In this document: in pieces, positions 649 through 35,069 of the stretch
Layout: every line of letters starts with the position of its first letter
Position numbering within the stretch: position 1 is the first letter of the stretch
Assembly (NCBI RefSeq): GCF_003334335.1
Contig: NZ_QOWQ01000033.1
Reading direction: 5' to 3' (one strand)
Origin: Escherichia coli
GTDB taxonomy: Bacteria > Pseudomonadota > Gammaproteobacteria > Enterobacterales > Enterobacteriaceae
DNA: 53,508 bases
The notes under the pieces: model-generated
What the model saw: the letters and a program-made list of their open reading frames with translations, nothing else
Databases searched by the model: none
Told to the model about the DNA's origin: nothing
Position numbers and translations under genes: made by a program

Positions 649-675
649 CTTAGATTCTGTGCTTTTAAGCAGAGA

Positions 676-888
676 TTACAGGCTGGTTACGTTACCAGCT
701 GCCGGGCCTTTAGCGCCGCTTTCGATGGTGAAGGACACTTTCTGACCTTCGTCCAGAGATTTGTAACCATCGTTCTGGATAGCAGAGAAGTGTACGAACA
801 CATCTTTAGAGCCATCGTCAGGAGTGATGAAGCCGAAGCCTTTGTCAGCGTTGAACCATTTTACGATACCAGTCATTTTACCGGACAT
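676..888 (-). CDS. cspA: major cold shock protein CspA (70 aa)
   Basis: [70 protein letters not shown]; RNP1-like KGFGFI motif. Confidence 0.97.
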
Positions 889-1047
889 AGTGTATTACCT
901 TTAATAATTAAGTGTGCCTTTCGGCGATATGGCGTGCTTTACAGATTTTGAAGCGTTAAAGGAATGTGCACTACGAGGGGTATCAACGATAACTCTTGAA
1001 GGGACTTGCCTTACTACACTGCTTTAATGGTCTGTACGTCAAACCGT
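889..1047 (-). promoter_or_regulatory. cspA long 5' UTR (cold box / thermosensor leader, about 160 nt)
   Basis: Sequence between the promoter -10 and the cspA ATG on the minus strand; the long structured leader is established knowledge for cspA. 5' end inferred from promoter position. Confidence 0.6.
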
Positions 1048-1055
1048 TGATGTGC

Positions 1056-4390: not shown

Positions 4391-4542
4391 TGTTAATCCT
4401 TAATAACCTTTTTATTCTTTGCCACGGGTTCCGTGGCGGGAGATTATGCCGCGTGAACATGAAGATTATTCCTGGGAATACTCGGAAATTTGTAAGTAAT
4501 ATTTAACTGCTCAATACATCTAACCTTTCAGGAGTCTTCGGT

Positions 4543-6876
4543 TTGGCCAACTCATCCTCACGATATTCCGTTCTGACTGCCGCCCATTGGGGGCCCATGC
4601 TGGTTGAAACCGACGGCGAAACCGTGTTTAGCTCGCGTGGCGCGTTAGCCACAGGAATGGAAAACTCCTTGCAGAGCGCGGTTCGCGACCAGGTTCACAG
4701 CAATACGCGGGTACGATTTCCAATGGTGCGAAAAGGCTTTCTTGCGTCACCGGAAAACCCGCAAGGCATTCGTGGGCAGGATGAATTTGTTCGCGTGAGT
4801 TGGGATGAGGCGCTGGATCTTATTCACCAACAACATAAACGCATTCGTGAGGCTTATGGTCCGGCATCGATTTTTGCTGGTTCCTACGGCTGGCGTTCAA
4901 ACGGCGTGCTGCATAAGGCCTCGACATTATTACAACGCTATATGGCGCTGGCAGGCGGTTATACCGGGCATCTGGGGGATTATTCGACCGGCGCGGCACA
5001 GGCGATCATGCCGTATGTCGTGGGTGGTAGTGAAGTTTATCAACAGCAGACCAGTTGGCCGCTGGTGCTGGAACATAGCGATGTCGTGGTGCTGTGGAGT
5101 GCTAACCCACTCAATACGCTGAAAATTGCGTGGAATGCATCCGATGAGCAGGGGCTTTCTTACTTTTCTGCACTGCGTGACAGCGGGAAAAAGCTGATCT
5201 GCATTGATCCAATGCGATCGGAAACCGTCGATTTCTTTGGCGATAAAATGGAGTGGGTGGCACCGCACATGGGCACCGATGTTGCGCTGATGCTGGGGAT
5301 CGCCCATACGCTGGTGGAAAATGGTTGGCACGACGAAGCGTTTCTGGCGCGTTGCACCACAGGTTATGCCGTCTTCGCCTCTTATTTGCTGGGCGAGAGT
5401 GACGGAATAGCGAAAACCGCCGAATGGGCAGCAGAGATTTGTGGTGTTGGCGCAGCGAAAATCCGCGAGCTGGCGGCTATTTTCCACCAAAATACCACCA
5501 TGCTGATGGCAGGCTGGGGAATGCAGCGCCAACAGTTTGGTGAGCAAAAACACTGGATGATCGTCACGCTGGCAGCAATGTTGGGGCAAATCGGCACACC
5601 CGGCGGCGGTTTTGGTCTTTCTTACCATTTTGCCAATGGTGGTAACCCCACGCGGCGTTCTGCGGTGCTCTCTTCCATGCAGGGCAGCTTGCCGGGTGGC
5701 TGCGATGCGGTGGATAAAATCCCTGTTGCCCGCATTGTTGAAGCACTGGAAAACCCTGGTGGCGCATATCAACACAACGGTATGAACCGACATTTCCCGG
5801 ATATTCGTTTTATCTGGTGGGCGGGCGGTGCCAACTTTACTCATCATCAGGATACCAATCGCCTGATCCGTGCCTGGCAAAAACCGGAGCTGGTGGTGAT
5901 CTCTGAATGCTTCTGGACGGCGGCGGCAAAACACGCGGATATCGTTCTGCCTGCGACTACCTCTTTTGAGCGTAATGATCTCACCATGACCGGTGATTAC
6001 AGTAATCAGCATCTGGTGCCGATGAAGCAAGTGGTGCCGCCACGCTATGAAGCGCGTAATGATTTTGATGTTTTTGCCGAGTTAAGTGAACGCTGGGAGA
6101 AGGGCGGTTATGCACGTTTTACGGAAGGAAAAAGTGAGCTGCAATGGCTGGAAACGTTTTATAACGTTGCCCGACAGCGCGGGGCAAGCCAGCAGGTTGA
6201 ATTGCCGCCATTTGCTGAGTTCTGGCAAGCCAACCAGTTAATTGAGATGCCGGAAAACCCGGACAGCGAGCGGTTTATTCGCTTCGCTGATTTTTGCCGC
6301 GATCCGCTGGCGCATCCGTTAAAAACCGCCAGCGGCAAGATTGAAATCTTCTCACAGCGTATTGCCGATTACGGTTACCCGGATTGCCCTGGGCATCCAA
6401 TGTGGCTGGAGCCGGACGAATGGCAGGGCAATGCCGAACCAGAACAGTTGCAGGTACTTTCTGCCCATCCGGCGCACCGCCTGCACAGCCAGCTGAATTA
6501 CAGTTCTCTGCGCGAATTGTACGCGGTGGCAAATCGTGAGCCTGTCACCATTCATCCTGACGATGCCCAGGAGCGCGGCATACAAGATGGCGATACTGTT
6601 CGGTTGTGGAACGCACGCGGGCAAATTCTTGCCGGAGCGGTCATTAGCGAGGGAATTAAACCTGGCGTGATTTGCATTCACGAAGGGGCATGGCCGGATC
6701 TGGATTTAACCGCTGACGGTATTTGTAAAAACGGCGCAGTGAACGTGCTGACCAAAGATCTCCCCAGCTCGCGGCTGGGGAATGGCTGTGCGGGTAATAC
6801 GGCGCTGGCATGGCTGGAAAAATACAACGGTCCGGAACTGACACTTACAGCGTTTGAACCACCGGCCAGCTCATAA
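4543..6876 (+). CDS. bisC: biotin sulfoxide reductase (molybdopterin oxidoreductase)
   Basis: 777 aa ORF of the molybdopterin DMSO-reductase family; the listed start is a TTG, so the true start is uncertain (in-frame ATGs at about 4597 and about 4657). Confidence 0.9.
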
Positions 6877-7285
6877 TCCATGTGGGTAGTTGGGTTTCAT
6901 CCTGCCATGCGCAATCGACAATGTGAAAACCCTGTGCCTGGTAAAAATTTATCGCCGGTTGATTTTTTTGATAAACCTCCAGCATCAGGTGGGGATGGCG
7001 CTGCTGCACATACTGCATCAGCGCCTTACCAATACCGCGCCTGACGGCCTTCGGTGCGACAAACATCGCTGCCAGAAATCGGCCTTCCATAATGCTGACA
7101 AAACCGAGAAGCTTACCGTCTTCTTCCCAGACCCAGTTTTGCGCGTTGGCAAGATAGGCATCCCGCACCAGCGGAATGCAGTCACGCCAGTAATTCGCTT
7201 TTATAAAGGGATGCCCCCAGGTTGTACTTTCCAGCCACAGTTCGAGGATCGCGGGGAGTTCTGAACGTTGCGCTTCCCGAATCAT
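6845..7285 (-). CDS. yiaC: GNAT family N-acetyltransferase YiaC
   Basis: 146 aa with GNAT acetyl-CoA motif (RRGIGKALM); 3' end overlaps the bisC 3' end convergently. Confidence 0.9.
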
Positions 7286-7845
7286 GGTTTATTTCCCGGA
7301 TAGCAACAGCAGCCAACCACATGATCATTCACCAGCCCACATGCCTGCATAAAGGAGTAACAGATTGTGGTGCCGACAAACTTAAAACCACGTTTTTTCA
7401 GTGCCTTAGATAGGGCGTCGGAGGCGGACGTAGATGTGGGAATTTCGCTCAACGTTGTGGCTTGTGTCACCTGTGGCTGATGATTTACAAACGACCAGAC
7501 AAAGTCGACAAACGGTTCGCCGTTCTGTTCCATTTGCAGGTACGCCCGCGCATTACCAATAATTGCCTGAATTTTCCCTCGATGGCGGATAATCCCGGCG
7601 TCCTGTACCAGTCTTTCGACATCCTCTTCCTGCATTGCTGCGACCTTCACCGGATCGAACTGATGAAAGCAGGCGCGATAGTTTTCGCGTTTTTTGAGGA
7701 CGGTGATCCACGATAATCCAGCCTGCTGCCCTTCAAGGCAGATCATTTCGAACAGTTTTTTACTGTCAGTTTCAGGCACGCCCCACTCATTATCATGGTA
7801 GGCAATATAAAGCGGGTCCTGACTCACCCAGCCGCAACGTTCCAT
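7282..7845 (-). CDS. tag: DNA-3-methyladenine glycosylase I (187 aa)
   Basis: MERCGWVSQDPLYIAYHDNEWGVPETDSKKLFE... with C-terminal zinc-site Cys/His; ATG at 7845; the longer ORF to 8082 is an upstream extension. Confidence 0.93.
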   Translation of the reverse strand: MERCGWVSQDPLYIAYHDNEWGVPETDSKKLFEMICLEGQQAGLSWITVLKKRENYRACFHQFDPVKVAAMQEEDVERLVQDAGIIRHRGKIQAIIGNARAYLQMEQNGEPFVDFVWSFVNHQPQVTQATTLSEIPTSTSASDALSKALKKRGFKFVGTTICYSFMQACGLVNDHVVGCCCYPGNKP

Positions 7846-8002
7846 ACTTTCCCTCGCTATGTACCCGATCGTAAAAATTTCAGCCGCTTTTCTTGACGCA
7901 TCGGTGAAAAAGTCAATATTTAATACAGGGCTACTATGCCCGATATCCTTCATACAATGACAATAATATTGCCGAATTCGGCTCTTCCCTGGAGTCGTGT
8001 TA

Positions 8003-8701
8003 ATGATCATAAAAAAAAGCGGTGGTCGCTGGCAGCTAAGCCTGCTGGCGAGCGTGGTAATCAGTGCCTTTTTTCTCAACACAGCTTACGCCTGGCAACA
8101 AGAATATATCGTTGATACGCAACCCGGACTTTCCACAGAGCGTTACACCTGGGATAGTGATCATCAACCTGATTACAACGATATTTTGTCGCAACGTATT
8201 CAAAGTAGCCAAAGGGCGCTGGGACTGGAAGTCAATCTGGCGGAAGAAACCCCTGTGGATGTGACCAGCAGTATGAGTATGGGCTGGAATTTTCCTTTAT
8301 ATGAACAGGTTACAACCGGCCCGGTCGCGGCATTACATTACGATGGCACAACCACCTCGATGTATAACGAGTTTGGCGACAGTACTACCACGCTGACCGA
8401 TCCGTTATGGCATGCCAGCGTGAGTACCTTAGGCTGGCGTGTTGACTCCCGGCTTGGCGATCTCCGACCCTGGGCGCAAATCAGCTATAACCAGCAATTT
8501 GGCGAGAATATCTGGAAGGCGCAATCAGGCCTGAGCCGGATGACGGCGACAAACCAGAACGGCAACTGGCTGGATGTCACCGTAGGCGCTGATATGTTGC
8601 TCAATCAAAATATTGCCGCCTATGCCGCGCTAACTCAGGCAGAAAATACCACTAATAATAGCGACTATCTGTATACGATGGGGGTTAGCGCCAGATTTTA
8701 A
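8003..8701 (+). CDS. yhjY: small outer-membrane beta-barrel protein with autotransporter-like translocator domain (232 aa)
   Basis: N-terminal signal peptide (LLASVVISAFFLNTAYA), C-terminal aromatic residue (…GVSARF) typical of OMP barrels; ATG at 8003. Confidence 0.85.
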   Translation: MIIKKSGGRWQLSLLASVVISAFFLNTAYAWQQEYIVDTQPGLSTERYTWDSDHQPDYNDILSQRIQSSQRALGLEVNLAEETPVDVTSSMSMGWNFPLYEQVTTGPVAALHYDGTTTSMYNEFGDSTTTLTDPLWHASVSTLGWRVDSRLGDLRPWAQISYNQQFGENIWKAQSGLSRMTATNQNGNWLDVTVGADMLLNQNIAAYAALTQAENTTNNSDYLYTMGVSARF

Positions 8702-8815
8702 CGTAACAGTCACAATTGAAACCATTAAATAACAATAGTTGTGGCGATAGTGGGTGCTAACTTACCAAATAATAAATTTGGTGAATAATTGTCGCGTCAT
8801 TCATTCCTGAACTAA

Positions 8816-8846
8816 GGCATTTCATTCCGTTCTGATGGCATTTCAT
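8816..8846 (+). promoter_or_regulatory. YpdB (LytTR response regulator) binding site: direct repeat GGCATTTCAT-N11-GGCATTTCAT
   Basis: Two perfect 10-bp direct repeats 11 bp apart, about 85 bp upstream of the yhjX ATG; matches the published YpdB motif as I recall it. Confidence 0.75.
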
Positions 8847-8929
8847 GCCGTTTTTCCCCAGGCATAAAGTGCACTTCGTTATGGTTGTCGGCAGAGATTT
8901 TTCCTTTTTATTACTGCAGGAATACTGCC

Positions 8930-10138
8930 ATGACACCTTCAAATTATCAGCGTACCCGCTGGCTGACACTCATCGGTACTATCATTACCCAGTTTGCGCT
9001 GGGGTCGGTTTATACCTGGAGCCTGTTTAATGGCGCGCTTTCCGCCAAGCTGGATGCGCCGGTAAGCCAGGTCGCTTTCTCTTTCGGCTTGTTAAGTCTG
9101 GGGCTGGCAATTTCGTCTTCTGTTGCGGGCAAATTACAGGAACGTTTTGGCGTTAAACGCGTCACCATGGCTTCCGGCATTTTGCTGGGATTAGGCTTCT
9201 TCCTGACAGCGCATTCTGACAACCTGATGATGCTGTGGTTAAGCGCCGGTGTGCTGGTGGGACTGGCAGATGGCGCGGGTTATCTGCTGACGCTCTCTAA
9301 CTGTGTGAAGTGGTTCCCGGAGCGTAAAGGTCTGATCTCCGCGTTCGCTATCGGTTCTTATGGTCTGGGTAGCCTGGGTTTCAAATTTATCGACACGCAG
9401 CTGCTGGAAACGGTCGGTCTGGAAAAAACCTTTGTGATTTGGGGAGCGATTGCGCTGTTGATGATTGTTTTCGGCGCAACGTTAATGAAAGACGCACCAA
9501 AACAGGAAGTGAAAACCAGCAATGGTGTGGTGGAGAAAGATTACACGCTGGCAGAGTCGATGCGTAAACCGCAGTACTGGATGTTAGCGGTAATGTTCCT
9601 GACCGCCTGCATGAGCGGCCTGTACGTGATTGGGGTAGCGAAAGATATCGCCCAAAGTCTGGCACACCTTGATGTGGTTTCCGCAGCCAATGCAGTCACT
9701 GTTATTTCCATCGCCAACCTTTCAGGTCGTCTGGTGCTGGGTATTCTGTCTGACAAAATCGCCCGTATCCGTGTTATTACCATTGGTCAGGTGATATCGC
9801 TGGTGGGTATGGCGGCCCTGCTGTTTGCACCATTGAATGCAGTGACGTTCTTTGCAGCGATTGCCTGCGTGGCATTTAACTTTGGCGGCACTATTACCGT
9901 CTTTCCGTCACTGGTCAGTGAGTTCTTTGGCCTCAATAACCTGGCGAAAAACTACGGTGTGATTTATCTCGGTTTCGGTATCGGTAGCATTTGTGGTTCG
10001 ATTATCGCCTCACTGTTTGGCGGCTTCTATGTGACCTTCTACGTGATTTTCGCCCTGCTGATTCTGTCATTGGCGCTTTCTACGACGATTCGTCAGCCAG
10101 AGCAGAAAATGTTGCGTGAGGCGCATGGCTCCCTTTAA
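8930..10138 (+). CDS. yhjX: MFS transporter YhjX (oxalate/formate antiporter-like; pyruvate-responsive)
   Basis: 12-TM MFS profile starting MTPSNYQRTRWLTLIGTIITQFALGSVYTWSLFN; ATG at 8930. Confidence 0.92.
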   Translation: MTPSNYQRTRWLTLIGTIITQFALGSVYTWSLFNGALSAKLDAPVSQVAFSFGLLSLGLAISSSVAGKLQERFGVKRVTMASGILLGLGFFLTAHSDNLMMLWLSAGVLVGLADGAGYLLTLSNCVKWFPERKGLISAFAIGSYGLGSLGFKFIDTQLLETVGLEKTFVIWGAIALLMIVFGATLMKDAPKQEVKTSNGVVEKDYTLAESMRKPQYWMLAVMFLTACMSGLYVIGVAKDIAQSLAHLDVVSAANAVTVISIANLSGRLVLGILSDKIARIRVITIGQVISLVGMAALLFAPLNAVTFFAAIACVAFNFGGTITVFPSLVSEFFGLNNLAKNYGVIYLGFGIGSICGSIIASLFGGFYVTFYVIFALLILSLALSTTIRQPEQKMLREAHGSL

Positions 10139-20875: not shown

Positions 20876-22555
20876 TTACTGCGGGTAAGGCACCCAGTCG
20901 CCGCCGTTCAGGCGAACGTACGGTTTATCCTGGTATTGAATAACTACTGCATTTGAGTTCTCGGAGACCGGTGCTGTTTGTGGCAACCCACTGGTGAGTT
21001 TTTTCCAGTCAACATTGTCTTCGGTGAAAATCTTGCCATCGAGAACGCGAACCACCAGATCGGAGATAGCCAGGAAGCTGCTCGGTTGTTCGATGACAAT
21101 CGGTGCCCCCTGATGCGGTGCCTTCATGCCGAAGAATTTCACCCCAACGGGGACGTCGGTGATAGACGGGCTAGGGATATCACGTAGGCCAGATACCTGC
21201 ATTCTGTCGCCCTTCAGCGCGCCGCCGTGTTCCGGCACCACGACCACCATCACTTTACGACCCGATTTCTCAAGTTCAGTAAAGAAGGCGTCCAGTTCAT
21301 CAAAGAATTTCTGCGCCCGCGCTTTGTAATCCGCTGTTTTGCTGACCCCCGGATAATGGTTGCCGTCATGCAGTGGAAGCGTGTTGTAGAACGTGGCACT
21401 ACGGCTGTTTTTATCTTTTTCGGTAACGTCCAGCCAGCGGTTAAGCACAGCGGTATCGTCATAAACCGGCGAACCATCAAAGCCCAGCAAAATAACCGGC
21501 AGATTTGTTTGATCCATCAATTCGCTCTGCATGCCGCCATTTTCGCGAACTTCTTTCAAAAAACCGCCGAACTGGCCGTTATGTCCCATCATCAGGTGCT
21601 GGGTAAAGCCCAGTTTCGAAAGGTTATCAAACAGATAGCAGTCGTTATTTGCCGGTTGATACAGATTAGTGTGCGAAGTCTGCCCGCAGCTGGCGCGCAG
21701 TAAACGGATCGCCGCCGGGCCACTGTAGGAGGTGGCGGAGTTAAAGTTCTTGAACTCAATATCGAAATGCGACCACAGTGGATGCGACATCAACCCGGCG
21801 GCTTCTATATCCGACCAGGAAAGCGAACAGATGTTAATCACCAGTAGTTCAAATGGCTGAGCATCAGCGGGCAGCGAAGACGGGAAGGTCGATTTACGTT
21901 TCGCCTCCGCGTTATAGAAATTATTCAGCCAGGCGTTAAGGTTCGCCGTTGTTGGCGGTGCAGTTTGTGCGGGCATATCACCCACTACCGGTGCGCCACC
22001 CGTCGCCGCAACGGTTGCCGCTGCGTTACCACCCGTCGTTGTTACAGTGGTCGTCGGTTGTCCGGCTGGCCACAAGGAGAAACTTGGTCCCGCCAGGGTA
22101 AGTACGTTCAGCCATAGCAGTATGGCAACCACAAAAACGGTAATGCGAATCCATTGTGACAGGAATAACCAGGCCACTAATAAAACAAAAATGGCCCCAA
22201 TCATCTGCCAGTTAATAAAGCGTGTGACAAGGTCGATTAAATAATCGGTACTGAACCCCGCCACCTGCGAACCCTGGCTCATTATGCTTTCCGGGCCAGG
22301 CAACCAGGTGTCATGCCAGAACAAAGCAAAGCCGATCGGCAGGGCAATCCAGTGGCGCAAGCGATGCAGGCTGTAGCGCGGAAGGGGCATCAGCAGAAAC
22401 GCGGCAAACACCAAATTGAGGAGCGGATGGAAGTTAAGATATCCCGCCCACAACAGGCCGAACTTAACCAGAAAATAGAAGTTCCAGCCGGAAAGGCCGC
22501 GCCAGTATTGCCAGAGGGAAGAAGGCATGGCGGTATTTTGCGTAAATTGAGTCAT
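20876..22555 (-). CDS. bcsG: cellulose phosphoethanolamine transferase BcsG
   Basis: 559 aa, N-terminal TM helices plus alkaline-phosphatase-superfamily periplasmic domain; ATGA overlap with bcsF. Confidence 0.93.
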
Positions 22556-22743
22556 TTTTTGGTTGCCCTGGCTTTTTCCGTGCGGCGTAACGTCCCGGCC
22601 GGTTTAACATAACGAGGTTTAGCAAAGAACAAACGTAAGGTGTCGCGAATGCGTCGCAAAGAGTGCCGCGCCAGATAGCCCAGCGGGAAAAATATCAGTG
22701 CGCAAACGACAATAATTTCAATGATATCGCTGATGGTCATCAT
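22552..22743 (-). CDS. bcsF: cellulose biosynthesis small membrane protein BcsF (63 aa)
   Basis: [31 protein letters not shown]...; single TM helix; overlaps bcsE and bcsG by 4 bp each. Confidence 0.9.
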
Positions 22744-24311
22744 GATGAGCGCTCCACAGCATCATCTAACAGTCGCATGGGTTCTGGTATTCGTCGCCAG
22801 TGGCGACCATCGTGCTCGGCATTGATGACCGGTTTAGAACTTTGCGTTAAAGGCAGCGGCATGCCCCATTGTTCTGGGGCAAGCAAGCGCATCTGCACCA
22901 GCTCGGCACTGATTTGATCATCTTCAAACCAGACCATACGGTTTGAGAAAATGTCGCCAGTAGGCAATGGGAAAATATGATTCAACGCGGTATCCAGATC
23001 GTTAATCCGACAGAATGAGAGAAACAGCACCAGCCGATTACCGCCAATGGTCATGATATCGCCGGTACGGTTAGGGCGACACAGCGTCAGGGCTTGTTCA
23101 ACGCGGATACCCGGTACCGGACGTAGGGCAACCAGAACGCCTTTACCGTGGGCAGGTAATAGAGGGTTATTCATCATGTTGTTGACGGCATTACAGAACA
23201 CATCCCACTTCTGGAAACCACGCAGTTTGAGCGGCTGGGTCATTGACAGCAAGGTAGTGATATCTTCCGGCACATAGCGACTAAACTTCTGCCCTTGCAC
23301 GCTTTCGATCATCGTCAGACAACGGGAGAGTGGCGCATTCCACGGAATAACCATATTTGCACCGCAGGCCAATAACAAACGTTCATCGGTGGCGCGCAGG
23401 CTAGCGGTATTTTCCCGCACGAGGATTTTCATCGCACTACCGCGCTGGCGACGCAGGGTATGAATGCTGCGGGCCAGTGGCTCGATTTGCGCATTTTGCT
23501 GTAAAGAAAAGACCACCGTCGCCGCCTGAGCGGTACGGGCTTCATTGAACAGGACTTCGTTATTGTTGAACAGTTGCCAGTGTTCCGATAGCGGCGGCGC
23601 ACCTTCCAGTACAGCAACATTACTCAGAATGCGTTTTTCGTCGCTGCGTGGTTGGATCTCCGCCTCTTCGCTTTGAACTAATGTCCAGATACCATTTTGT
23701 TGCTGAACGCTAAGCTGCTGACGGGCGCTGACCCCTTTTTCGTTGCACCAGAAGGCAATATCCAGCAAATGTTGGTCACCCTGAAAACGCAAACTGGCAA
23801 GACCAAAAAGTGAACGGTATTCCTCAAGCAACAATGAAAATTGTTTATCGTTATTATTTCCGGGATTAATTACCAAAAGCGAACAATGGTTTAACCTGCT
23901 CCATTTATTCATTTTATCCAACCATGAGCGAAGCCGCTCGGCAGGAATGTTTTGCCATGCGTTATTTGCGCAAACAAGAATAAAAAGGTAATTATGGGGA
24001 TCAATAGAACACTGCAAATCACGGGTCAAATAGTATAGACCTTTTTCATGATTTAGCATTGAAAATAATTTTATTTTTTCCGGCCCTTGAGAATCATCTA
24101 ATTGAAAGATTTTCGCCGGATCGCTGTCCATGCTAATGACCGCGACGTGTGCGGTTTCAGCCTGGGATGCAATTGTTTGATTCGCCAGACTGATAGCATC
24201 TTCATGGCGATCGACGTTAAACCACCAGACGCCACCTGCTGGCATATGTCGCAGCTCATCCCATAATGATGAGATACCGATAGAGAATACAGGGTCCACA
24301 ATGTCCCTCAT
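22740..24311 (-). CDS. bcsE: cellulose biosynthesis c-di-GMP-binding protein BcsE (GIL domain)
   Basis: 523 aa; RxGD motif (RTGD) seen in ...[15 protein letters not shown].... Confidence 0.93.
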
Positions 24312-24583: not shown

Positions 24584-24772
24584 ATGAATAACAATGAACC
24601 AGATACTCTGCCTGATCCCGCGATAGGCTATATCTTCCAGAATGATATTGTGGCGTTAAAGCAGGCATTTTCACTGCCTGATATTGATTATGCCGATATT
24701 TCCCAACGCGAACAGTTGGCCGCGGCATTAAAACGCTGGCCGTTGCTGGCAGAGTTTGCGCAACAAAAGTAG
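24584..24772 (+). CDS. bcsR: cellulose biosynthesis protein BcsR (62 aa)
   Basis: MNNNEPDTLPDPAIGYIFQNDIVALKQAFSLPDIDYADISQREQLAAALKRWPLLAEFAQQK; divergent from bcsE. Confidence 0.9.
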   Translation: MNNNEPDTLPDPAIGYIFQNDIVALKQAFSLPDIDYADISQREQLAAALKRWPLLAEFAQQK

Positions 24773-24783
24773 GGGATTGGTGA

Positions 24784-25536
24784 ATGGCCGTACTGGGATT
24801 GCAGGGGGTGCGGGGAGGCGTGGGGACAACAACCATCACCGCCGCATTAGCCTGGTCATTACAAATGTTGGGAGAAAATGTCCTGGTGGTCGATGCCTGC
24901 CCGGACAACTTGTTGCGCCTGTCATTTAATGTTGATTTTACCCACCGTCAGGGCTGGGCCAGAGCGATGCTGGATGGCCAGGACTGGCGTGACGCTGGGT
25001 TGCGCTACACCTCGCAGCTCGATTTGCTGCCTTTTGGTCAGTTATCCATTGAAGAACAAGAAAATCCACAGCACTGGCAAACCCGGCTGAGCGATATTTG
25101 CTCCGGCTTACAGCAACTAAAAGCCAGCGGGCGTTACCAGTGGATTTTAATCGACTTACCGCGTGATGCCTCGCAGATAACCCACCAGCTGCTGAGTTTG
25201 TGCGATCACTCGCTGGCAATCGTCAATGTGGATGCCAACTGCCATATCCGACTGCATCAGCAAGCGCTGCCGGATGGCGCACATATTTTGATTAATGACT
25301 TCCGTATTGGCAGTCAGGTTCAGGACGATATTTACCAGCTTTGGTTGCAAAGCCAGCGCCGATTACTGCCGATGCTCATTCATCGTGATGAAGCGATGGC
25401 TGAATGCCTGGCGGCTAAGCAACCAGTAGGTGAATATCGCAGTGATGCGCTGGCGGCTGAAGAGATACTGACGCTGGCGAACTGGTGCCTGTTGAACTAC
25501 TCCGGGCTGAAAACGCCAGTCGGGAGTGCATCATGA
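24784..25536 (+). CDS. bcsQ: cellulose biosynthesis protein BcsQ (MinD/ParA-like), uninterrupted 250-codon frame
   Basis: ATG at 24784, 12 bp after the bcsR stop; codon 6 (24799-24801) is TTG; P-loop-like GVRGGVGTTT; ATGA overlap with bcsA. Confidence 0.9.
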   Translation: MAVLGLQGVRGGVGTTTITAALAWSLQMLGENVLVVDACPDNLLRLSFNVDFTHRQGWARAMLDGQDWRDAGLRYTSQLDLLPFGQLSIEEQENPQHWQTRLSDICSGLQQLKASGRYQWILIDLPRDASQITHQLLSLCDHSLAIVNVDANCHIRLHQQALPDGAHILINDFRIGSQVQDDIYQLWLQSQRRLLPMLIHRDEAMAECLAAKQPVGEYRSDALAAEEILTLANWCLLNYSGLKTPVGSAS

Positions 25537-28151
25537 GTATCCTGACCCGGTGGTTGCTTATCCCGCCGGTCAACGCGCGGCTTATCGGGCGTTATCGCGA
25601 TTATCGTCGTCACGGTGCGTCGGCTTTCAGCGCGACGCTCGGCTGTTTCTGGATGATCCTGGCCTGGATTTTTATTCCGCTGGAGCACCCGCGCTGGCAG
25701 CGTATTCGCGCAGAACATAAAAACCTGTATCCGCATATCAACGCCTCGCGTCCGCGTCCGCTGGACCCGGTCCGTTATCTCATTCAAACATGCTGGTTAT
25801 TGATCGGTGCATCGCGCAAAGAAACGCCGAAACCGCGCAGGCGGGCATTTTCAGGTCTGCAAAATATTCGTGGACGTTACCATCAATGGATGAACGAGCT
25901 GCCTGAGCGCGTTAGCCATAAAACACAGCATCTGGATGAGAAAAAAGAGCTCGGTCATTTGAGTGCCGGGGCGCGGCGGTTGATCCTCGGTATCATCGTC
26001 ACCTTCTCGCTGATTCTGGCGTTAATCTGCGTTACTCAGCCGTTTAACCCGCTGGCGCAGTTTATCTTCCTGATGCTGCTGTGGGGGGTAGCGCTGATCG
26101 TACGGCGGATGCCGGGGCGCTTCTCGGCGCTAATGTTGATTGTGCTGTCGCTGACCGTTTCTTGCCGTTATATCTGGTGGCGTTACACCTCTACGCTGAA
26201 CTGGGACGATCCGGTCAGCCTGGTGTGCGGGCTTATTCTGCTCTTCGCTGAAACGTACGCGTGGATTGTGCTGGTGCTCGGCTACTTCCAGGTAGTATGG
26301 CCGCTGAATCGTCAGCCGGTGCCATTGCCGAAAGATATGTCGCTGTGGCCGTCGGTGGATATCTTTGTCCCGACTTACAACGAAGATCTCAACGTGGTGA
26401 AAAATACCATTTACGCCTCGCTGGGTATCGACTGGCCGAAAGATAAGCTGAATATCTGGATCCTTGATGACGGCGGCAGGGAAGAGTTTCGCCAGTTTGC
26501 GCAAAACGTGGGGGTGAAATATATCGCCCGCACCACTCATGAACATGCGAAAGCAGGCAACATCAACAATGCGCTGAAATATGCCAAAGGCGAGTTCGTG
26601 TCGATTTTCGACTGCGACCACGTACCAACGCGATCGTTCTTGCAAATGACCATGGGCTGGTTCCTGAAAGAAAAACAGCTGGCGATGATGCAGACGCCGC
26701 ACCACTTCTTCTCACCGGACCCGTTTGAACGCAACCTGGGGCGTTTCCGTAAAACGCCGAACGAAGGCACGCTGTTCTATGGTCTGGTGCAGGATGGCAA
26801 CGATATGTGGGACGCCACTTTCTTCTGCGGTTCCTGTGCGGTGATTCGTCGTAAGCCGCTGGATGAAATTGGCGGCATTGCTGTCGAAACCGTGACTGAA
26901 GATGCGCATACTTCTCTGCGGTTGCACCGTCGTGGCTATACCTCCGCGTATATGCGTATTCCGCAGGCGGCGGGGCTGGCGACCGAAAGTCTGTCGGCGC
27001 ATATCGGTCAGCGTATTCGCTGGGCGCGCGGGATGGTACAAATCTTCCGTCTCGATAACCCGCTCACCGGTAAAGGGCTGAAGTTTGCTCAGCGGCTATG
27101 TTACGTCAACGCCATGTTCCACTTCTTGTCGGGCATTCCACGGCTGATCTTCCTGACTGCGCCGCTGGCGTTCCTGCTGCTTCATGCCTACATCATCTAT
27201 GCGCCAGCGTTGATGATCGCCCTATTCGTGCTGCCGCATATGATCCATGCCAGCCTGACCAACTCCAAGATCCAGGGCAAATATCGCCACTCTTTCTGGA
27301 GTGAAATCTACGAAACGGTGCTGGCGTGGTATATCGCACCACCGACGCTGGTGGCGCTGATTAACCCGCACAAAGGCAAATTTAACGTCACCGCCAAAGG
27401 TGGACTGGTGGAAGAAGAGTACGTCGACTGGGTGATCTCGCGGCCCTACATCTTCCTTGTCCTGCTCAACCTGGTGGGCGTTGCGGTAGGCATCTGGCGC
27501 TACTTCTATGGCCCGCCAACCGAGATGCTCACCGTGGTCGTCAGTATGGTGTGGGTGTTCTACAACCTGATTGTTCTTGGCGGCGCAGTTGCGGTATCGG
27601 TAGAAAGCAAACAGGTACGCCGATCGCACCGCGTGGAGATGACGATGCCCGCGGCAATTGCCCGCGAAGATGGTCACCTCTTCTCGTGTACCGTTCAGGA
27701 TTTCTCCGACGGTGGTTTGGGGATCAAGATCAACGGTCAGGCGCAGATTCTGGAAGGGCAGAAAGTGAATCTGTTGCTTAAACGCGGTCAGCAGGAATAC
27801 GTCTTCCCGACCCAGGTGGCGCGCGTGATGGGTAATGAAGTTGGGCTGAAATTAATGCCGCTCACCACCCAGCAACATATCGATTTTGTGCAGTGTACGT
27901 TTGCCCGTGCGGATACATGGGCGCTCTGGCAGGACAGCTACCCGGAAGATAAGCCGCTGGAAAGTCTGCTGGATATTCTGAAGCTCGGCTTCCGTGGCTA
28001 CCGCCATCTGGCGGAGTTTGCGCCTTCTTCGGTGAAGGGCATATTCCGTGTGCTGACTTCTCTGGTTTCCTGGGTTGTATCGTTTATTCCGCGCCGCCCG
28101 GAGCGGAGCGAAACGGCACAACCATCGGATCAGGCTTTGGCTCAACAATGA
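25533..28151 (+). CDS. bcsA: cellulose synthase catalytic subunit BcsA (GT2 + PilZ)
   Basis: GT2 motifs (DDG, TED in VTEDAHTS, QRIRW), C-terminal PilZ motifs RRSHR and DFSDGG; ATG at 25533. Confidence 0.96.
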   Translation: MSILTRWLLIPPVNARLIGRYRDYRRHGASAFSATLGCFWMILAWIFIPLEHPRWQRIRAEHKNLYPHINASRPRPLDPVRYLIQTCWLLIGASRKETPKPRRRAFSGLQNIRGRYHQWMNELPERVSHKTQHLDEKKELGHLSAGARRLILGIIVTFSLILALICVTQPFNPLAQFIFLMLLWGVALIVRRMPGRFSALMLIVLSLTVSCRYIWWRYTSTLNWDDPVSLVCGLILLFAETYAWIVLVLGYFQVVWPLNRQPVPLPKDMSLWPSVDIFVPTYNEDLNVVKNTIYASLGIDWPKDKLNIWILDDGGREEFRQFAQNVGVKYIARTTHEHAKAGNINNALKYAKGEFVSIFDCDHVPTRSFLQMTMGWFLKEKQLAMMQTPHHFFSPDPFERNLGRFRKTPNEGTLFYGLVQDGNDMWDATFFCGSCAVIRRKPLDEIGGIAVETVTEDAHTSLRLHRRGYTSAYMRIPQAAGLATESLSAHIGQRIRWARGMVQIFRLDNPLTGKGLKFAQRLCYVNAMFHFLSGIPRLIFLTAPLAFLLLHAYIIYAPALMIALFVLPHMIHASLTNSKIQGKYRHSFWSEIYETVLAWYIAPPTLVALINPHKGKFNVTAKGGLVEEEYVDWVISRPYIFLVLLNLVGVAVGIWRYFYGPPTEMLTVVVSMVWVFYNLIVLGGAVAVSVESKQVRRSHRVEMTMPAAIAREDGHLFSCTVQDFSDGGLGIKINGQAQILEGQKVNLLLKRGQQEYVFPTQVARVMGNEVGLKLMPLTTQQHIDFVQCTFARADTWALWQDSYPEDKPLESLLDILKLGFRGYRHLAEFAPSSVKGIFRVLTSLVSWVVSFIPRRPERSETAQPSDQALAQQ

Positions 28152-28161: not shown

Positions 28162-30501
28162 ATGAAAAGAAAACTATTCTGGATTTGTGCAGTGGCTATG
28201 GGGATGAGTGCGTTCCCCTCTTTCATGACGCAGGCGACGCCAGCAACGCAACCACTGATCAATGCTGAGCCAGCTGTAGCCGCCCAGACGGAACAAAATC
28301 CGCAGGTGGGGCAAGTGATGCCGGGCGTGCAGGGCGCTGATGCGCCAGTCGTGGCGCAGAACGGTCCTTCGCGTGATGTGAAGCTGACCTTTGCGCAAAT
28401 TGCACCGCCGCCGGGCAGCATGGTGCTACGTGGCATTAACCCGAACGGCAGCATTGAGTTTGGTATGCGCAGCGATGAAGTGGTGACGAAGGCGATGCTC
28501 AACCTCGAATACACCCCATCGCCATCGTTACTGCCTGTCCAGTCGCAGTTAAAGGTTTATCTCAATGATGAACTGATGGGCGTGCTGCCAGTGACCAAAG
28601 AACAGTTGGGTAAAAAAACGCTGGCGCAAATGCCCATTAACCCACTGTTTATTACCGACTTCAACCGTGTACGGCTGGAGTTTGTCGGCCATTATCAGGA
28701 CGTGTGCGAAAACCCGGCCAGCACCACGCTTTGGCTGGATGTTGGGCGGAGCAGTGGACTGGATCTGACCTATCAGACCCTGAATGTGAAGAATGACCTG
28801 TCACACTTCCCGGTGCCATTCTTTGACCCGCGCGATAACCGCACCAACACCTTGCCGATGGTCTTTGCGGGTGCGCCGGATGTTGGGCTGCAACAAGCCT
28901 CTGCCATTGTCGCCTCGTGGTTTGGTTCGCGTTCTGGCTGGCGTGGGCAGAACTTCCCGGTACTCTATAACCAACTGCCGGATCGCAATGCCATTGTCTT
29001 TGCAACCAACGACAAACGGCCGGACTTCCTGCGCGATCATCCGGCGGTAAAAGCCCCGGTGATTGAGATGATTAACCATCCGCAGAATCCTTACGTCAAA
29101 CTGCTGGTGGTGTTTGGTCGTGACGACAAAGACCTGTTGCAGGCAGCGAAAGGTATCGCTCAGGGTAACATTCTGTTCCGTGGTGAAAGCGTGGTAGTGA
29201 ATGAAGTGAAACCGCTGCTACCGCGTAAGCCGTACGATGCGCCGAACTGGGTACGTACCGATCGTCCGGTCACATTTGGCGAACTGAAAACCTATGAAGA
29301 ACAGTTACAATCCAGCGGTCTTGAGCCAGCAGCGATTAACGTTTCGCTAAACCTGCCGCCGGATCTCTACCTGATGCGCAGTATCGGCATTGATATGGAT
29401 ATTAATTACCGCTACACCATGCCGCCGGTGAAAGACAGTTCGCGGATGGATATCAGCCTGAATAACCAGTTCCTGCAATCCTTCAACCTGAGCAGCAAAC
29501 AGGAGGCGAACCGCCTGCTGCTGCGGATTCCGGTATTACAAGGTTTGCTGGATGGCAAAACAGATGTCTCTATTCCGGCGCTGAAACTGGGCGCGACCAA
29601 CCAGCTGCGCTTCGACTTTGAGTATATGAACCCGATGCCGGGCGGTTCGGTGGATAACTGTATTACCTTCCAGCCGGTGCAGAATCATGTGGTGATTGGT
29701 GACGACTCCACCATCGACTTCTCGAAGTATTACCACTTCATCCCGATGCCGGATCTACGCGCCTTTGCTAACGCGGGCTTCCCATTCAGCCGGATGGCGG
29801 ATCTGTCGCAAACCATCACCGTGATGCCGAAAGCGCCTAACGAAGCACAGATGGAAACGTTGCTGAATACTGTTGGTTTTATCGGCGCACAGACGGGCTT
29901 CCCGGCGATTAATCTGACGGTGACCGATGATGGCAGCACCATTCAGGGCAAAGATGCCGACATCATGATCATCGGTGGTATCCCGGACAAACTGAAAGAC
30001 GATAAGCAGATCGACCTATTGGTGCAGGCGACCGAAAGCTGGGTGAAAACACCGATGCGCCAGACCCCGTTCCCCGGCATTGTGCCGGACGAGAGCGATC
30101 GCGCGGCAGAAACCCGGTCAACGCTGACCTCTTCCGGTGCGATGGCGGCGGTGATTGGCTTCCAGTCGCCGTATAACGACCAGCGCAGCGTGATTGCGTT
30201 GTTGGCAGATAGCCCACGCGGTTATGAAATGCTTAACGATGCGGTGAACGATAGCGGCAAACGCGCCACCATGTTCGGTTCGGTCGCGGTGATCCGCGAG
30301 TCCGGTATCAACAGCCTACGTGTTGGCGACGTTTATTACGTAGGTCATCTGCCGTGGTTCGAGCGCGTGTGGTATGCGCTGGCAAACCATCCGATTCTGC
30401 TGGCGGTGCTGGCGGCTATCAGTGTGATATTGCTGGCATGGGTACTGTGGCGTCTGCTGCGAATTATTAGTCGTCGTCGTCTTAACCCGGATAACGAGTA
30501 A
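28162..30501 (+). CDS. bcsB: cellulose synthase periplasmic subunit BcsB
   Basis: 779 aa starting MKRKLFWICAVAMGMSAFPSF (signal peptide) with C-terminal TM anchor; the ORF track's 28075 start overlaps the bcsA end. Confidence 0.95.
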   Translation: MKRKLFWICAVAMGMSAFPSFMTQATPATQPLINAEPAVAAQTEQNPQVGQVMPGVQGADAPVVAQNGPSRDVKLTFAQIAPPPGSMVLRGINPNGSIEFGMRSDEVVTKAMLNLEYTPSPSLLPVQSQLKVYLNDELMGVLPVTKEQLGKKTLAQMPINPLFITDFNRVRLEFVGHYQDVCENPASTTLWLDVGRSSGLDLTYQTLNVKNDLSHFPVPFFDPRDNRTNTLPMVFAGAPDVGLQQASAIVASWFGSRSGWRGQNFPVLYNQLPDRNAIVFATNDKRPDFLRDHPAVKAPVIEMINHPQNPYVKLLVVFGRDDKDLLQAAKGIAQGNILFRGESVVVNEVKPLLPRKPYDAPNWVRTDRPVTFGELKTYEEQLQSSGLEPAAINVSLNLPPDLYLMRSIGIDMDINYRYTMPPVKDSSRMDISLNNQFLQSFNLSSKQEANRLLLRIPVLQGLLDGKTDVSIPALKLGATNQLRFDFEYMNPMPGGSVDNCITFQPVQNHVVIGDDSTIDFSKYYHFIPMPDLRAFANAGFPFSRMADLSQTITVMPKAPNEAQMETLLNTVGFIGAQTGFPAINLTVTDDGSTIQGKDADIMIIGGIPDKLKDDKQIDLLVQATESWVKTPMRQTPFPGIVPDESDRAAETRSTLTSSGAMAAVIGFQSPYNDQRSVIALLADSPRGYEMLNDAVNDSGKRATMFGSVAVIRESGINSLRVGDVYYVGHLPWFERVWYALANHPILLAVLAAISVILLAWVLWRLLRIISRRRLNPDNE

Positions 30502-30507
30502 TTGAAG

Positions 30508-31614
30508 ATGAATGTGTTGCGTAGTGGAATCGTGACGATGCTGCTGCTGGCTGCCTTTAGTGTTCAGGCAGCCTGTACCTGGCCTGCCTGGGAGCAGTTT
30601 AAAAAGGATTACATCAGTCAGGAAGGGCGCGTCATCGACCCCAGCGACGCGCGCAAAATCACCACCTCCGAAGGGCAAAGTTACGGCATGTTCTCTGCCC
30701 TGGCGGCTAACGACCGTGCAGCTTTCGATAATATTCTCGACTGGACGCAGAACAATCTCGCTCAGGGTTCTTTAAAAGAACGTTTGCCCGCCTGGCTGTG
30801 GGGCAAGAAAGAGAACAGTAAGTGGGAAGTGCTGGACAGCAATTCGGCCTCCGATGGTGATGTCTGGATGGCCTGGTCGTTGCTGGAGGCGGGGCGTTTG
30901 TGGAAAGAGCAGCGTTATACCGACATCGGCAGCGCGTTGCTAAAACGTATCGCGCGGGAGGAAGTGGTGACGGTGCCTGGGCTGGGTTCCATGTTGTTAC
31001 CGGGCAAAGTGGGTTTTGCTGAGGATAACAGCTGGCGTTTTAACCCCAGCTACCTGCCGCCGACGCTGGCGCAGTATTTCACCCGCTTTGGCGCGCCGTG
31101 GACCACGCTGCGCGAAACCAATCAACGTTTATTGCTGGAAACCGCCCCGAAAGGTTTTTCGCCAGACTGGGTGCGCTATGAGAAAGACAAAGGCTGGCAG
31201 CTAAAAGCCGAAAAAACATTGATCAGCAGCTACGACGCTATCCGCGTTTACATGTGGGTAGGCATGATGCCTGACAGCGATCCGCAAAAAGCGCGGATGC
31301 TCAACCGGTTTAAACCGATGGCGACATTCACTGAGAAAAACGGTTATCCGCCGGAAAAAGTGGATGTGGCTACGGGGAAAGCGCAGGGTAAAGGACCAGT
31401 CGGTTTTTCTGCCGCCATGCTGCCCTTTTTACAAAACCGCGATGCGCAGGCCGTTCAGCGCCAGCGCGTGGCCGATAACTTTCCCGGCAGCGATGCCTAT
31501 TACAACTATGTGCTGACCCTGTTTGGACAAGGCTGGGATCAACACCGTTTCCGCTTCTCGACAAAAGGTGAGTTATTACCTGACTGGGGCCAGGAATGCG
31601 CAAATTCACACTAA
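30508..31614 (+). CDS. bcsZ: endo-1,4-beta-glucanase BcsZ (glycoside hydrolase family 8)
   Basis: 368 aa with signal peptide ([21 protein letters not shown]) and GH8-like segment [12 protein letters not shown]. Confidence 0.95.
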
Positions 31615-34600
31615 ACATATTCACGCTTTCCCTCGGTCTGGCCGTCATGCCGATGGTCGAGGCAGCACCAACCGCTCAGCAACAGTTGCTGGAGCAAGTT
31701 CGGTTAGGCGAAGCGACCCATCGTGAAGATCTGGTGCAACAGTCGTTATATCGGCTGGAACTTATTGATCCGAATAACCCGGACGTCGTTGCCGCCCGTT
31801 TCCGTTCTTTGTTACGTCAGGGCGATATTGATGGCGCGCAAAAACAGCTCGATCGGCTGTCGCAGTTAGCGCCGAGTTCAAATGCGTATAAATCGTCGCG
31901 GACTACGATGCTACTTTCCACGCCGGATGGTCGTCAGGCACTGCAACAGGCACGATTGCAGGCGACGACCGGTCATGCAGAAGAAGCTGTGGCGAGTTAC
32001 AACAAACTGTTCAACGGTGCGCCGCCGGAAGGTGACATTGCTGTCGAGTACTGGAGTACGGTGGCGAAAATTCCGGCTCGCCGTGGCGAAGCGATTAATC
32101 AGTTAAAACGCATCAATGCGGATGCACCGGGCAATACGGGCCTGCAAAACAATCTGGCGCTATTGCTGTTTAGTAGCGATCGCCGTGACGAAGGTTTTGC
32201 CGTCCTGGAACAGATGGCAAAATCGAACGCCGGGCGCGAAGGGGCCTCTAAAATCTGGTACGGGCAGATTAAAGACATGCCCGTCAGTGATGCCAGTGTG
32301 TCGGCGCTGAAAAAATATCTCTCGATCTTTAGTGATGGCGATAGCGTGGCGGCTGCGCAATCGCAACTGGCAGAACAGCAAAAACAGCTGGCCGATCCTG
32401 CTTTCCGCGCTCGTGCGCAAGGTTTAGCGGCGGTGGACTCTGGTATGGCGGGTAAAGCCATTCCCGAACTACAACAGGCGGTGCGGGCGAACCCGAAAGA
32501 CAGTGAAGCTCTGGGGGCGCTGGGCCAGGCGTATTCTCAGAAAGGCGATCGCGCCAATGCAGTGGCGAATCTGGAAAAAGCCCTCGCACTGGACCCGCAC
32601 AGCAGCAACAACGACAAATGGAACAGTCTGCTGAAAGTAAACCGCTACTGGCTGGCGATCCAGCAGGGCGATGCTGCGCTGAAAGCCAATAATCCTGACC
32701 GGGCAGAACGCCTGTTCCAGCAGGCGCGTAATGTCGATAACACCGACAGTTATGCCGTGCTGGGGCTGGGCGATGTGGCGATGGCGCGAAAAGATTATCC
32801 CGCCGCCGAACGTTATTATCAGCAGACCTTGCGTATGGACAGCGGCAACACTAACGCCGTGCGCGGGCTGGCAAATATTTACCGCCAGCAATCGCCAGAA
32901 AAAGCTGAAGCGTTTATCGCCTCGCTCTCTGCCAGTCAGCGGCGTAGCATTGATGATATCGAACGCAGCCTGCAAAACGACCGTCTGGCACAGCAGGCAG
33001 AGGCACTGGAAAACCAGGGCAAATGGGCGCAGGCGGCAGCACTTCAGCGGCAACGACTGGCGCTGGACCCCGGCAGCGTATGGATTACTTACCGACTTTC
33101 GCAGGATCTCTGGCAGGCCGGACAACGCAGCCAGGCCGATACGTTAATGCGCAATCTGGCGCAGCAGAAGTCGAACGACCCGGAGCAGGTTTACGCTTAC
33201 GGGCTGTACCTCTCTGGTCATGACCAGGACAGAGCGGCGCTGGCGCATATCAACAGCCTGCCGCGTGCGCAGTGGAACAGCAATATTCAGGAGCTGGTTA
33301 ATCGACTGCAAAGCGATCAGGTGCTGGAAACCGCTAACCGCCTGCGAGAAAGCGGCAAAGAGGCAGAAGCGGAAGCGATGCTGCGCCAGCAACCACCTTC
33401 CACGCGTATTGACCTCACGCTGGCTGACTGGGCGCAACAACGACGTGATTACACCGCCGCCCGCGCTGCATATCAGAATGTCCTGACGCGGGAGCCAGCT
33501 AACGCCGACGCCATTCTTGGTCTGACGGAAGTGGATATTGCTGCCGGTGACAAAGCGGCGGCACGTAGCCAGCTGGCGAAACTGCCCGCTACCGATAACG
33601 CCTCGCTGAACACACAGCGGCGCGTGGCGCTGGCACAGGCGCAGCTTGGCGATACCGCAGCAGCGCAGCGGACGTTTAATAAGTTGATCCCGCAGGCAAA
33701 ATCTCAGCCACCGTCGATGGAAAGCGCGATGGTGCTGCGTGATGGTGCGAAGTTTGAAGCGCAGGCGGGCGATCCAACGCAGGCGCTGGAAACCTACAAA
33801 GACGCCATGGTCGCATCCGGTGTGACTACGACGCGTCCGCAGGATAACGACACCTTTACCCGACTGACCCGTAACGACGAGAAAGATGACTGGCTGAAAC
33901 GTGGCGTGCGCAGCGATGCGGCGGACCTCTATCGCCAGCAGGATCTTAACGTCACCCTTGAGCACGATTACTGGGGTTCGAGCGGCACCGGTGGTTACTC
34001 CGATCTGAAAGCGCACACTACCATGTTGCAGGTGGATGCGCCGTATTCTGACGGGCGGATGTTCTTTCGCAGTGATTTCGTCAATATGAACGTCGGCAGT
34101 TTCTCCACTAATGCCGATGGCAAATGGGATGACAACTGGGGCACCTGTACATTACAGGACTGTAGCGGCAACCGCAGCCAGTCGGATTCCGGTGCCAGCG
34201 TGGCGGTCGGCTGGCGAAATGACGTCTGGAGCTGGGATATCGGTACCACGCCGATGGGCTTCAACGTGGTGGATGTGGTCGGCGGCATCAGTTACAGCGA
34301 TGATATCGGGCCGCTGGGTTACACCGTTAACGCCCACCGTCGGCCCATCTCCAGTTCTTTGCTGGCCTTTGGTGGGCAAAAAGACTCCCCGAGCAATACC
34401 GGGAAAAAATGGGGTGGCGTACGTGCCGACGGTGTGGGGCTAAGTCTGAGCTACGATAAAGGTGAAGCAAACGGCGTCTGGGCATCGCTTAGTGGCGACC
34501 AGTTAACCGGTAAAAATGTCGAAGATAACTGGCGCGTGCGCTGGATGACGGGCTATTACTATAAGGTCATTAACCAGAACAATCGCCGCGTCACAATCGG

Positions 34601-35069
34601 CCTGAACAACATGATCTGGCATTACGACAAAGATCTGAGTGGCTACTCACTCGGTCAGGGCGGTTACTACAGTCCGCAGGAATACCTGTCGTTTGCCATA
34701 CCGGTGATGTGGCGGGAGCGCACGGAAAACTGGTCGTGGGAGCTGGGTGCGTCTGGCTCGTGGTCGCATTCACGCACCAAAACCATGCCGCGTTATCCGC
34801 TGATGAATCTGATCCCGACCGACTGGCAGGAAGAAGCTGCGCGGCAATCCAACGATGGCGGCAGCAGTCAGGGCTTCGGCTACACGGCGCGGGCATTACT
34901 TGAACGACGTGTTACTTCCAACTGGTTTGTTGGCACGGCAATTGATATCCAGCAGGCGAAAGATTACGCACCCAGCCATTTCCTGCTCTACGTACGTTAT
35001 TCCGCCGCCGGATGGCAGGGTGACATGGATTTACCGCCGCAGCCGCTGATACCTTACGCCGACTGGTAA
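31596..35069 (+). CDS. bcsC: cellulose synthase outer-membrane subunit BcsC (TPR repeats + C-terminal beta-barrel)
   Basis: 1157 aa; signal peptide, long Ala/Leu/Gln-rich TPR region, Gly/Tyr/Trp-rich C-terminal barrel; start overlaps the bcsZ 3' end by 19 bp. Confidence 0.95.

Follow-up and report, generated by a model that had tools for sequence, protein, structure and literature searches.

The lysine-less P-loop of BcsQ in an Escherichia coli cellulose synthase operon, a known degenerate Walker A motif, and its occurrence across the BcsQ family

The DNA analysed here, a stretch of 53,508 nucleotides hereafter called the window, is a piece of the E. coli chromosome: it carries (from about yiaF) cspA, bisC, eptB, dppABCDF, the bcs genes and yhjA, and is collinear with annotated genomes. 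With the annotated reference locus L001, window coordinates are obtained by adding 4583 to those of L001. The features relevant to this work are reported in Table 1. The gene of interest, bcsQ, is placed between bcsR and bcsA in the cellulose synthase operon bcsRQABZC, and a bcsEFG operon diverges from it, whose products were recognised by the profiles NF011619 (BcsE, 1188 bits), TIGR03493 (BcsF, 116 bits) and TIGR03368 (BcsG, 817 bits). The presence of bcsE, bcsF and bcsG beside bcsRQABZC means that the Bcs system of the window is of Type II (E. coli-like). The ATG of bcsA overlaps the stop codon of bcsQ, an arrangement that suggests translational coupling of the BcsA synthase to BcsQ. The rdlD antitoxin RNA and the ldrD type I toxin reading frame, both found between yhjV and bcsG, are ordinary E. 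coli content, and the cspA thermoregulator, the proline tRNA and the two REP-derived sRNA families flanking eptB and dppA are expected for the region. An Rfam scan of the window gave no match within or near bcsQ.

Table 1. Features of the window, with the positions of the BcsQ residues discussed in the text.
Feature	Positions	Strand	Remarks and basis
cspA 5'UTR thermoregulator	621..1048	-	Rfam scan, 500.8 bits
tRNA-Pro(CGG)	12245..12321	+	
naRNA4 and ES036 (REP-derived sRNA families)	12415..12494; 14730..14772	-	
rdlD antitoxin RNA	20568..20633	-	Rfam RF01813, 87 bits
ldrD type I toxin reading frame	~20682..20789	+	
bcsEFG operon	20876..24311	-	divergent from bcsRQABZC
bcsG	20876..22555	-	
bcsF	22552..22743	-	
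bcsE	22740..24311	-	
bcsR	24584..24772	+	62 aa; NCBIfam NF040717, 75.2 bits (cutoff 46); annotation
bcsQ coding sequence	24784..25536	+	250 aa, intact allele; profile, PDB and DNA identity
Codon 6 of bcsQ	24799..24801	+	TTG (Leu)
Degenerate P-loop (deviant Walker A)	24805..24834	+	GVRGGVGTTT, residues 8-17; alignments to MinD and canonical BcsQ
R10	24811..24813	+	CGG; signature-lysine (trans) position, equivalent to MinD K11; alignment
T15	24826..24828	+	ACA; cis Walker A lysine position, equivalent to MinD K16; alignment
Switch I / Walker A'	24892..24906	+	D37-A-C39-P-D41; C39 at the position of the catalytic, water-activating Asp (MinD D40)
D124	25153..25155	+	Walker B aspartate (ILIDLP), kept; invariant in alignment A1
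D150-A-N152-C-H-I-R156	25231..25251	+	residues read; roles from PMC7840130
N171	25294..25296	+	contacts adenine; residue read, role from PMC7840130
D172	25297..25299	+	N172 in the crystallised protein
A249	25528..25530	+	K249 in the crystallised protein
ATGA overlap	25533..25536	+	bcsQ stop codon and bcsA ATG
bcsA	25533..28151	+	cellulose synthase; NF008558, 1794 bits
bcsB, bcsZ, bcsC	28162..35069	+	remainder of the bcsRQABZC operon; collinear annotated genome

The gene is an ordinary, intact E. coli bcsQ. The translation of its forward-strand reading frame begins MAVLGLQGVRGGVGTTTITAAL and matches the Pfam family PF06564 (CBP_BcsQ) over residues 1 to 236 with an E-value of 6.5e-115. It passes the family thresholds of NCBIfam NF007460 (542.9 bits for a cutoff of 399) and of TIGR03371 (297.7 for 157.85). 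At the DNA level it matches the bcsQ annotated in many E. coli genomes with 100% identity, and a bcsR-bcsQ query was covered over at least 80% of its length in 5245 of the 5426 complete genomes of the species. Compared by phmmer with the crystallised BcsQ of E. coli 1094 (PDB 6YBU and 6YAR; also 9FNN), the protein is identical at 248 of its 250 residues, and its N-terminus matches at every residue. The crystals of the 1094 protein are 6YAR, 6YAY, 6YB3, 6YB5 and 6YBU, with 6YBB for the R156E mutant, and the cryo-EM structures are 9FNN, 9FP0 and 9FP2. Both proteins share the P-loop, C39, D150, N152, R156 and N171, and both are encoded in a bcsR-bcsQ-bcsA cluster with a divergent bcsEFG. They differ at residues 172 and 249 (Table 1). 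Of 109 close homologues of 250 aa, 108 have D172, the residue beside the adenine-binding N171; it is thus the crystallised strain that carries a minor variant, N172.

A sequence-only reading of this DNA had remarked, at 24784..24840 (codons 1 to 19 of bcsQ, a correct placement), on a nucleotide-binding loop reading GVRGGVGTTT, in which both lysines of the deviant Walker A motif of MinD/ParA-type ATPases, KGGxGK[ST], would be replaced. The loop does read so, at codons 8 to 17 of the intact gene, and several independent alignments, with MinD and with canonical members of the BcsQ family, agreed on its register. phmmer paired GVRGGVGTTT with SGKGGVGKTT of Aquifex MinD (PDB 4V02 and 4V03). When residues 9 to 40 of the E. 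coli MinD chain (3Q9L) were aligned to BcsQ 8 to 39, R10 fell on K11, T15 on K16 and C39 on D40. Weak matches in the PDB (Soj, ParA, FleN, ArsA, Get3 and ParF) all lay on BcsQ residues ~3 to 55, and the NCBIfam MinD and ParA profiles matched the same N-terminal stretch. Finally, members of the BcsQ family that read KGGVGKTT align column for column with the BcsQ of the window (alignment A1), in which G11, G12, G14, T16, D37 and D124 are invariant, the MinD fragment included. The protein contains three lysines in total, K113, K212 and K243. A scan of all its 250 residues for GK[ST] and GxxxxGx[ST] returned none, which rules out a true P-loop elsewhere in the protein. Besides the two lysines, the switch I residue C39 constitutes a third degenerate catalytic position, absent from the sequence-only reading.

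Compared with MinD, ParA (Soj) and FlhG/FleN, BcsQ has in common the SIMIBI fold, the nucleotide-sandwich dimer, the glycine-rich loop, the Mg-binding threonine (T16), D37 and the Walker B aspartate (D124), and BcsR occupies the same site at the dimer interface as MinE does on MinD (PMC7840130). It differs by the replacement of KGGxGK[ST] by RGGVGTT and of the catalytic aspartate by a cysteine, so that the signature lysine, the Walker A lysine and the catalytic switch I aspartate are all missing, and by the fact that its ATP stays bound, with no ATPase cycle (PMC7840130). Its scores are far below the MinD/ParA equivalog cutoffs (23.8 for 212.9 with TIGR01968, 36.4 for 180 with NF041546). Other members of this superfamily have lost a single lysine: the signature lysine alone is missing in McdA, involved in carboxysome positioning (SGGQGKT, PMC9178275), and the Walker A lysine alone is replaced, by an arginine, in the KGGVGR-motif AAA ATPase family NF047398, whereas BcsQ is devoid of both lysines and of the catalytic aspartate. 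BcsQ does not belong to the latter family, as it scores 27.7 bits for a cutoff of 90 and reads RGGVGT rather than KGGVGR.

The lysine-less loop is already known, and structurally explained, for a protein 99% identical to that of the window. The review PMC8892547 (2021) quotes it verbatim as a "deviant Walker A motif (G8VRGGVGTTT)" and credits it to Le Quere and Ghigo (2009); PMC9178275 tabulates "BcsQ RGGVGTT" alongside MinD and ParA. Structures of BcsRQ at 1.6 to 2.1 Å were reported by Abidi et al. in 2021 (PMC7840130). The fold of BcsQ is a classical SIMIBI one, and in every crystal the protein forms an ATP-Mg sandwich dimer, which its obligate partner BcsR stitches together at the interface. 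T15, in place of the cis lysine, is directed into the core of the beta-sheet, away from ATP, and R10, in place of the trans lysine, is flipped off ATP and makes a salt bridge with D150. C39 (a serine in some relatives) replaces the water-activating aspartate, and the partner subunit reaches the ATP phosphates in trans with its N152 and R156, in the role of an arginine finger. No hydrolysis or exchange of this ATP was observed over long incubations (PMC7840130), and it was kept even after incubation with chelators or ADP (PMC7840130, PMC8892547). The ATPase activity of BcsQ is weak, and further inhibited by BcsE (PMC7840130). Non-canonical nucleotide handling, which the sequence-only reading had proposed from the letters of the loop, is therefore experimentally established for the 99% identical protein.

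Taking these data together, we consider it probable that BcsQ, with its SIMIBI/MinD fold, still binds ATP but has lost the residues for hydrolysis, and that its ATP serves mainly to lock a long-lived dimer. ATP-Mg would be held in cis by the P-loop backbone at G11, G12 and G14 and by T16/T17, with N171 on the adenine, and N152 and R156 of the partner subunit would reach the phosphates in trans. Intrinsic hydrolysis would be very slow as a result of the three degenerate positions, T15, R10 (parked on D150) and C39, and this slowness would make of ATP mainly the glue of a long-lived BcsR2Q2 sandwich dimer. Such a dimer would bind BcsE, be recruited to the membrane via BcsF, and buttress the PilZ domain of BcsA, keeping the synthase active. 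From the near identity of the two proteins, the same fold, the same ATP-bound sandwich dimer with BcsR and the same main ATP state can be expected for the window allele, with the reservation that the published data concern the crystallised protein, from which the window allele departs at D172 and A249. We infer that BcsQ functions mainly through its long-lived ATP state rather than through turnover.

Conservation in the family was examined among 97 representatives, taken at 50% identity, whose P-loop could be aligned, down to ~27% identity to the query. They were drawn from the best 150 of 740 matches (E ≤1e-3), i.e. those most similar to E. coli, and the sample is therefore biased towards E. 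coli-like proteins. Among these 97 representatives (best 150 of 740), the residues for binding were mostly kept: position 16 (Mg-binding) was T in 86 and S in 10, position 37 (switch I) D in 94, position 171 (adenine contact) N in 83, and position 150, which pairs with R10, D in 82. In the same 97 (best 150 of 740), position 15 (cis Walker A lysine) was occupied by T (43), A (22), V (8), S (7), K (6), C (5), R (3), N (2) or G (1), position 10 (trans signature lysine) by R in 60, K in 18 and other residues in 19, and position 39 (catalytic Asp) by C in 30, S in 20, N in 17 and D in 16. The rarity of Lys15 and Asp39 compared to the retention of the binding residues fits a loss of catalysis with binding preserved. 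The lysine-less motif was kept across Type II BcsQ proteins down to ~27% identity. The pair N152/R156 was scarce, being present in only 10 of the 97 (best 150 of 740), where A152/L156 was the commonest combination (28 of the 97). This scarcity weighs against the preferred reading in its details, since the exact E. coli geometry may not generalise across the family; judging from these sequences, the substitute "finger" N152/R156 is a feature of the subgroup near E. coli.

The sequence-only reading had also held the loop to be consistent with a scaffolding rather than an enzymatic role. Carried to its end, this idea makes of BcsQ a pure pseudo-ATPase scaffold, in which ATP is a permanent structural cofactor never hydrolysed in vivo. 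We would give this alternative a little less than an even chance. The retention of ATP without exchange after chelators or ADP agrees with it, and so does the degeneracy of all three catalytic positions across a large clade. Moreover, in the 2.85 Å cryo-EM analysis of Anso et al. (2024, PMC11470070), the BcsQ dimer is ATP-bound in the assembled macrocomplex, where it buttresses the PilZ domain of BcsA, an observation that favours a structural role and also supports the dimer held by ATP. Against it, the ATPase activity is weak but measurable, and single mutations have effects that a scaffold does not account for (PMC7840130). The T15K protein still binds ATP and dimerises, yet secretion is abolished, a loss of function that is unexplained if dimerisation glued by ATP is sufficient, and the gain-of-function mutants go the other way: R156E increases both ATPase and secretion, and C39D increases secretion. 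These three mutants also count against our preferred reading. Other substitutions reported in the same study reduce secretion (R10E and D150A) or lead to its progressive loss (N152D, N152D-R156E, N152A-R156A-N171A). The latter series shows that secretion needs ATP bound within the sandwich dimer, so that the absence of the lysines does not entail the absence of the nucleotide.

From the loss observed with T15K and the gains with R156E and C39D, Abidi et al. proposed that hydrolysis is delayed until after assembly (PMC7840130). In this one-shot model, BcsERQ would first reach the membrane, and ATP would then be hydrolysed a single time to power the sorting or assembly of BcsA, a partner or a change of conformation supplying water activation in trans. 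It overlaps with the dimer locked by ATP, the sole difference being whether or not hydrolysis is functionally required, and we regard it as possible but rather doubtful. In its favour, other SIMIBI proteins are poor ATPases until a partner activates them (PMC7840130). On the other hand, the model calls for an activating partner or catalytic residue that is so far hypothetical, the C39A-D41A mutant remains functional, and BcsE inhibits the ATPase (PMC7840130). Within the assembled macrocomplex BcsQ retains its ATP, and the family accepts A, V, C, S or N at position 15, with residues 152 and 156 often not polar. As to the scaffold proposal of the sequence-only reading, the part that stands is the ATP-bound buttress with its weak ATPase; the denial of an enzymatic role is less secure, as ATP binding is essential and the mutants T15K, R156E and C39D keep a late hydrolysis step under debate.

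An artefact, that is a P-loop located elsewhere, a wrong start codon, or a decaying pseudogene of the kind found in K-12, whose TAG at codon 6 had led us to check this point, found no support and has a negligible probability, given the lack of any GK[ST], an N-terminus identical to that of the crystallised BcsQ (which rules out a wrong start codon or frame), the TTG at codon 6 (which rules out the K-12 allele), and the wide conservation of the motif. Indeed, GVRGGVGTT[ST] was present in 115 of the best 120 clusters at 90% identity, and this conservation in relatives, together with the 100% DNA identity across genomes, indicates that the motif is due neither to chance nor to a sequencing error.

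In K-12 strains, the TAG at bcsQ codon 6 abolishes cellulose production (PMC5944007). A 61-mer carrying the K-12 allele was found exactly in 349 of the 5426 complete E. coli genomes, and MG1655, C600, J53 and other laboratory strains were among the six matches listed at 100% identity. One cluster of 537 protein sequences (P0006, 225 aa), labelled "partial BcsQ", starts at residue 26 (LQMLGENV...) and has no P-loop; it presumably corresponds to the truncated gene of K-12 type, re-annotated from a downstream start codon. An IS1A element was also seen under the bcsR-bcsQ match in several E. coli genomes. In the single one inspected, that of strain M159-1 (L016, NZ_CP058719.1; 373..1266), the element lies at the 5' end of bcsR; this gene is cut to 147 nt, and the bcsE frame is interrupted by a stop codon. 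This allele looks like an independent route to the loss of cellulose production.

We then considered how the lysine-less and the canonical forms are distributed in the family. Lys15 was found in 6 of the 97 representatives (P0228, P0235, P0243, P0244, P0248 and P0263; best 150 of 740 matches), all of which also have K10 and D39. They belong to the same Pfam and NCBIfam family as the BcsQ of the window, with scores of 216 to 247 bits for the TIGR03371 cutoff of 157.85. When the P-loop and switch I columns were left out of the alignment, they formed an exclusive clade (6/93) in a simple NJ tree. These canonical proteins (SAKGGVGKTT...DLDPQN) are encoded in clusters of the BcsD/BcsP type (Type I-like). 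Like the BcsQ of the window, they are found directly upstream of bcsA and after a BcsR-domain protein; unlike it, they keep K10, K15 and D39, and their upstream partner is a long BcsP-like protein instead of a short BcsR accompanied by BcsE, BcsF and BcsG.

Genomic context separated the two forms in all cases where it could be read, a split that rests on ~12 loci. Lysine-less proteins were associated with bcsE and/or bcsG in the window and in the six loci out of six from other organisms with an informative context. Both bcsE and bcsG were present at L006 (P0170; Q10/A15/C39, 31% identity), L008 (P0171), L012 (P0256; K10/T15/C39), L013 (P0242; N10/R15/D39) and L014 (P0176), and at L009 (P0201) the upstream reading frame encodes a BcsG (44% identity). 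Lysine-less bcsQ genes were downstream of a short bcsR (58 to 78 aa). Canonical bcsQ genes, in five cases out of five (four of the six representatives and a paralogue at L008), were downstream of a long BcsP-like gene encoding 129 to 213 aa with a BcsR domain (L004, L008, L011, L017 and L002). bcsD accompanied them at L004 and L008, whose contigs are long enough to show it. The contigs of P0235 and P0145 (L002/L003 and L015), with no Pfam-assigned neighbours, and those of P0234 and P0263 (L010 and L011), with just the upstream BcsR-domain gene, are too short for bcsE/G or bcsD, and the upstream BcsR or BcsP-like gene alone was used for them.

The two kinds of cluster are adjacent on one metagenomic contig, L008 (1760..3504 on the minus strand and 4305..16705 on the plus strand). 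The BcsQ of its bcsD / BcsP-like / bcsQ / bcsA cluster, Type I-like, reads SAKGGVGKTT...VDLDPQN, and that of its bcsE-F-G-R-Q-A-B-Z-C cluster, Type II, reads GLRGGVGTTS...IDLCPDN. At L013 (7411..8356), the BcsQ of the bcsE/bcsG cluster reads SGNGGVGRTT, with D39 kept and an arginine at the position of the Walker A lysine. Its upstream neighbour is a hydrophobic peptide of 55 aa in place of a recognisable BcsR, and this BcsQ may be an intermediate between the canonical and lysine-less forms. When the tree was rooted on the canonical clade, the next group was (N/T)10-R15-D39, followed by K10-T15-C39 and then by the R10 forms, an order that tentatively hints at a stepwise degeneration of the catalytic positions.

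The absence of the two P-loop lysines and the catalytic aspartate might therefore be no peculiarity of E. coli but a derived character common to all of the bcsE/bcsG-linked (Type II) lineage. The ancestor of this lineage would be a canonical BcsQ with K10, K15 and D39, a form still found in bcsD/bcsP (Type I-like) clusters, and the short BcsR and BcsE-F-G would have been recruited at the time when a cycling ATPase became an ATP-locked dimer. The N/T10-R15-D39 and K10-T15-C39 proteins would be intermediates in this change. We regard this scenario as evenly balanced between being right and being wrong. The split by context was not found stated in the BcsQ literature cited here, and may already be reported.

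The motif, the structure, the mutants and the weak ATPase have all been published, and the loop described here has little weight as a discovery. BcsQ nevertheless illustrates usefully how a P-loop NTPase can lose its catalytic residues and retain ATP as a cofactor for dimerisation. The split of the family into canonical and lysine-less forms, sometimes present together in one genome, provides a natural comparison for asking if the assembly of the cellulose synthase depends on one late hydrolysis event.
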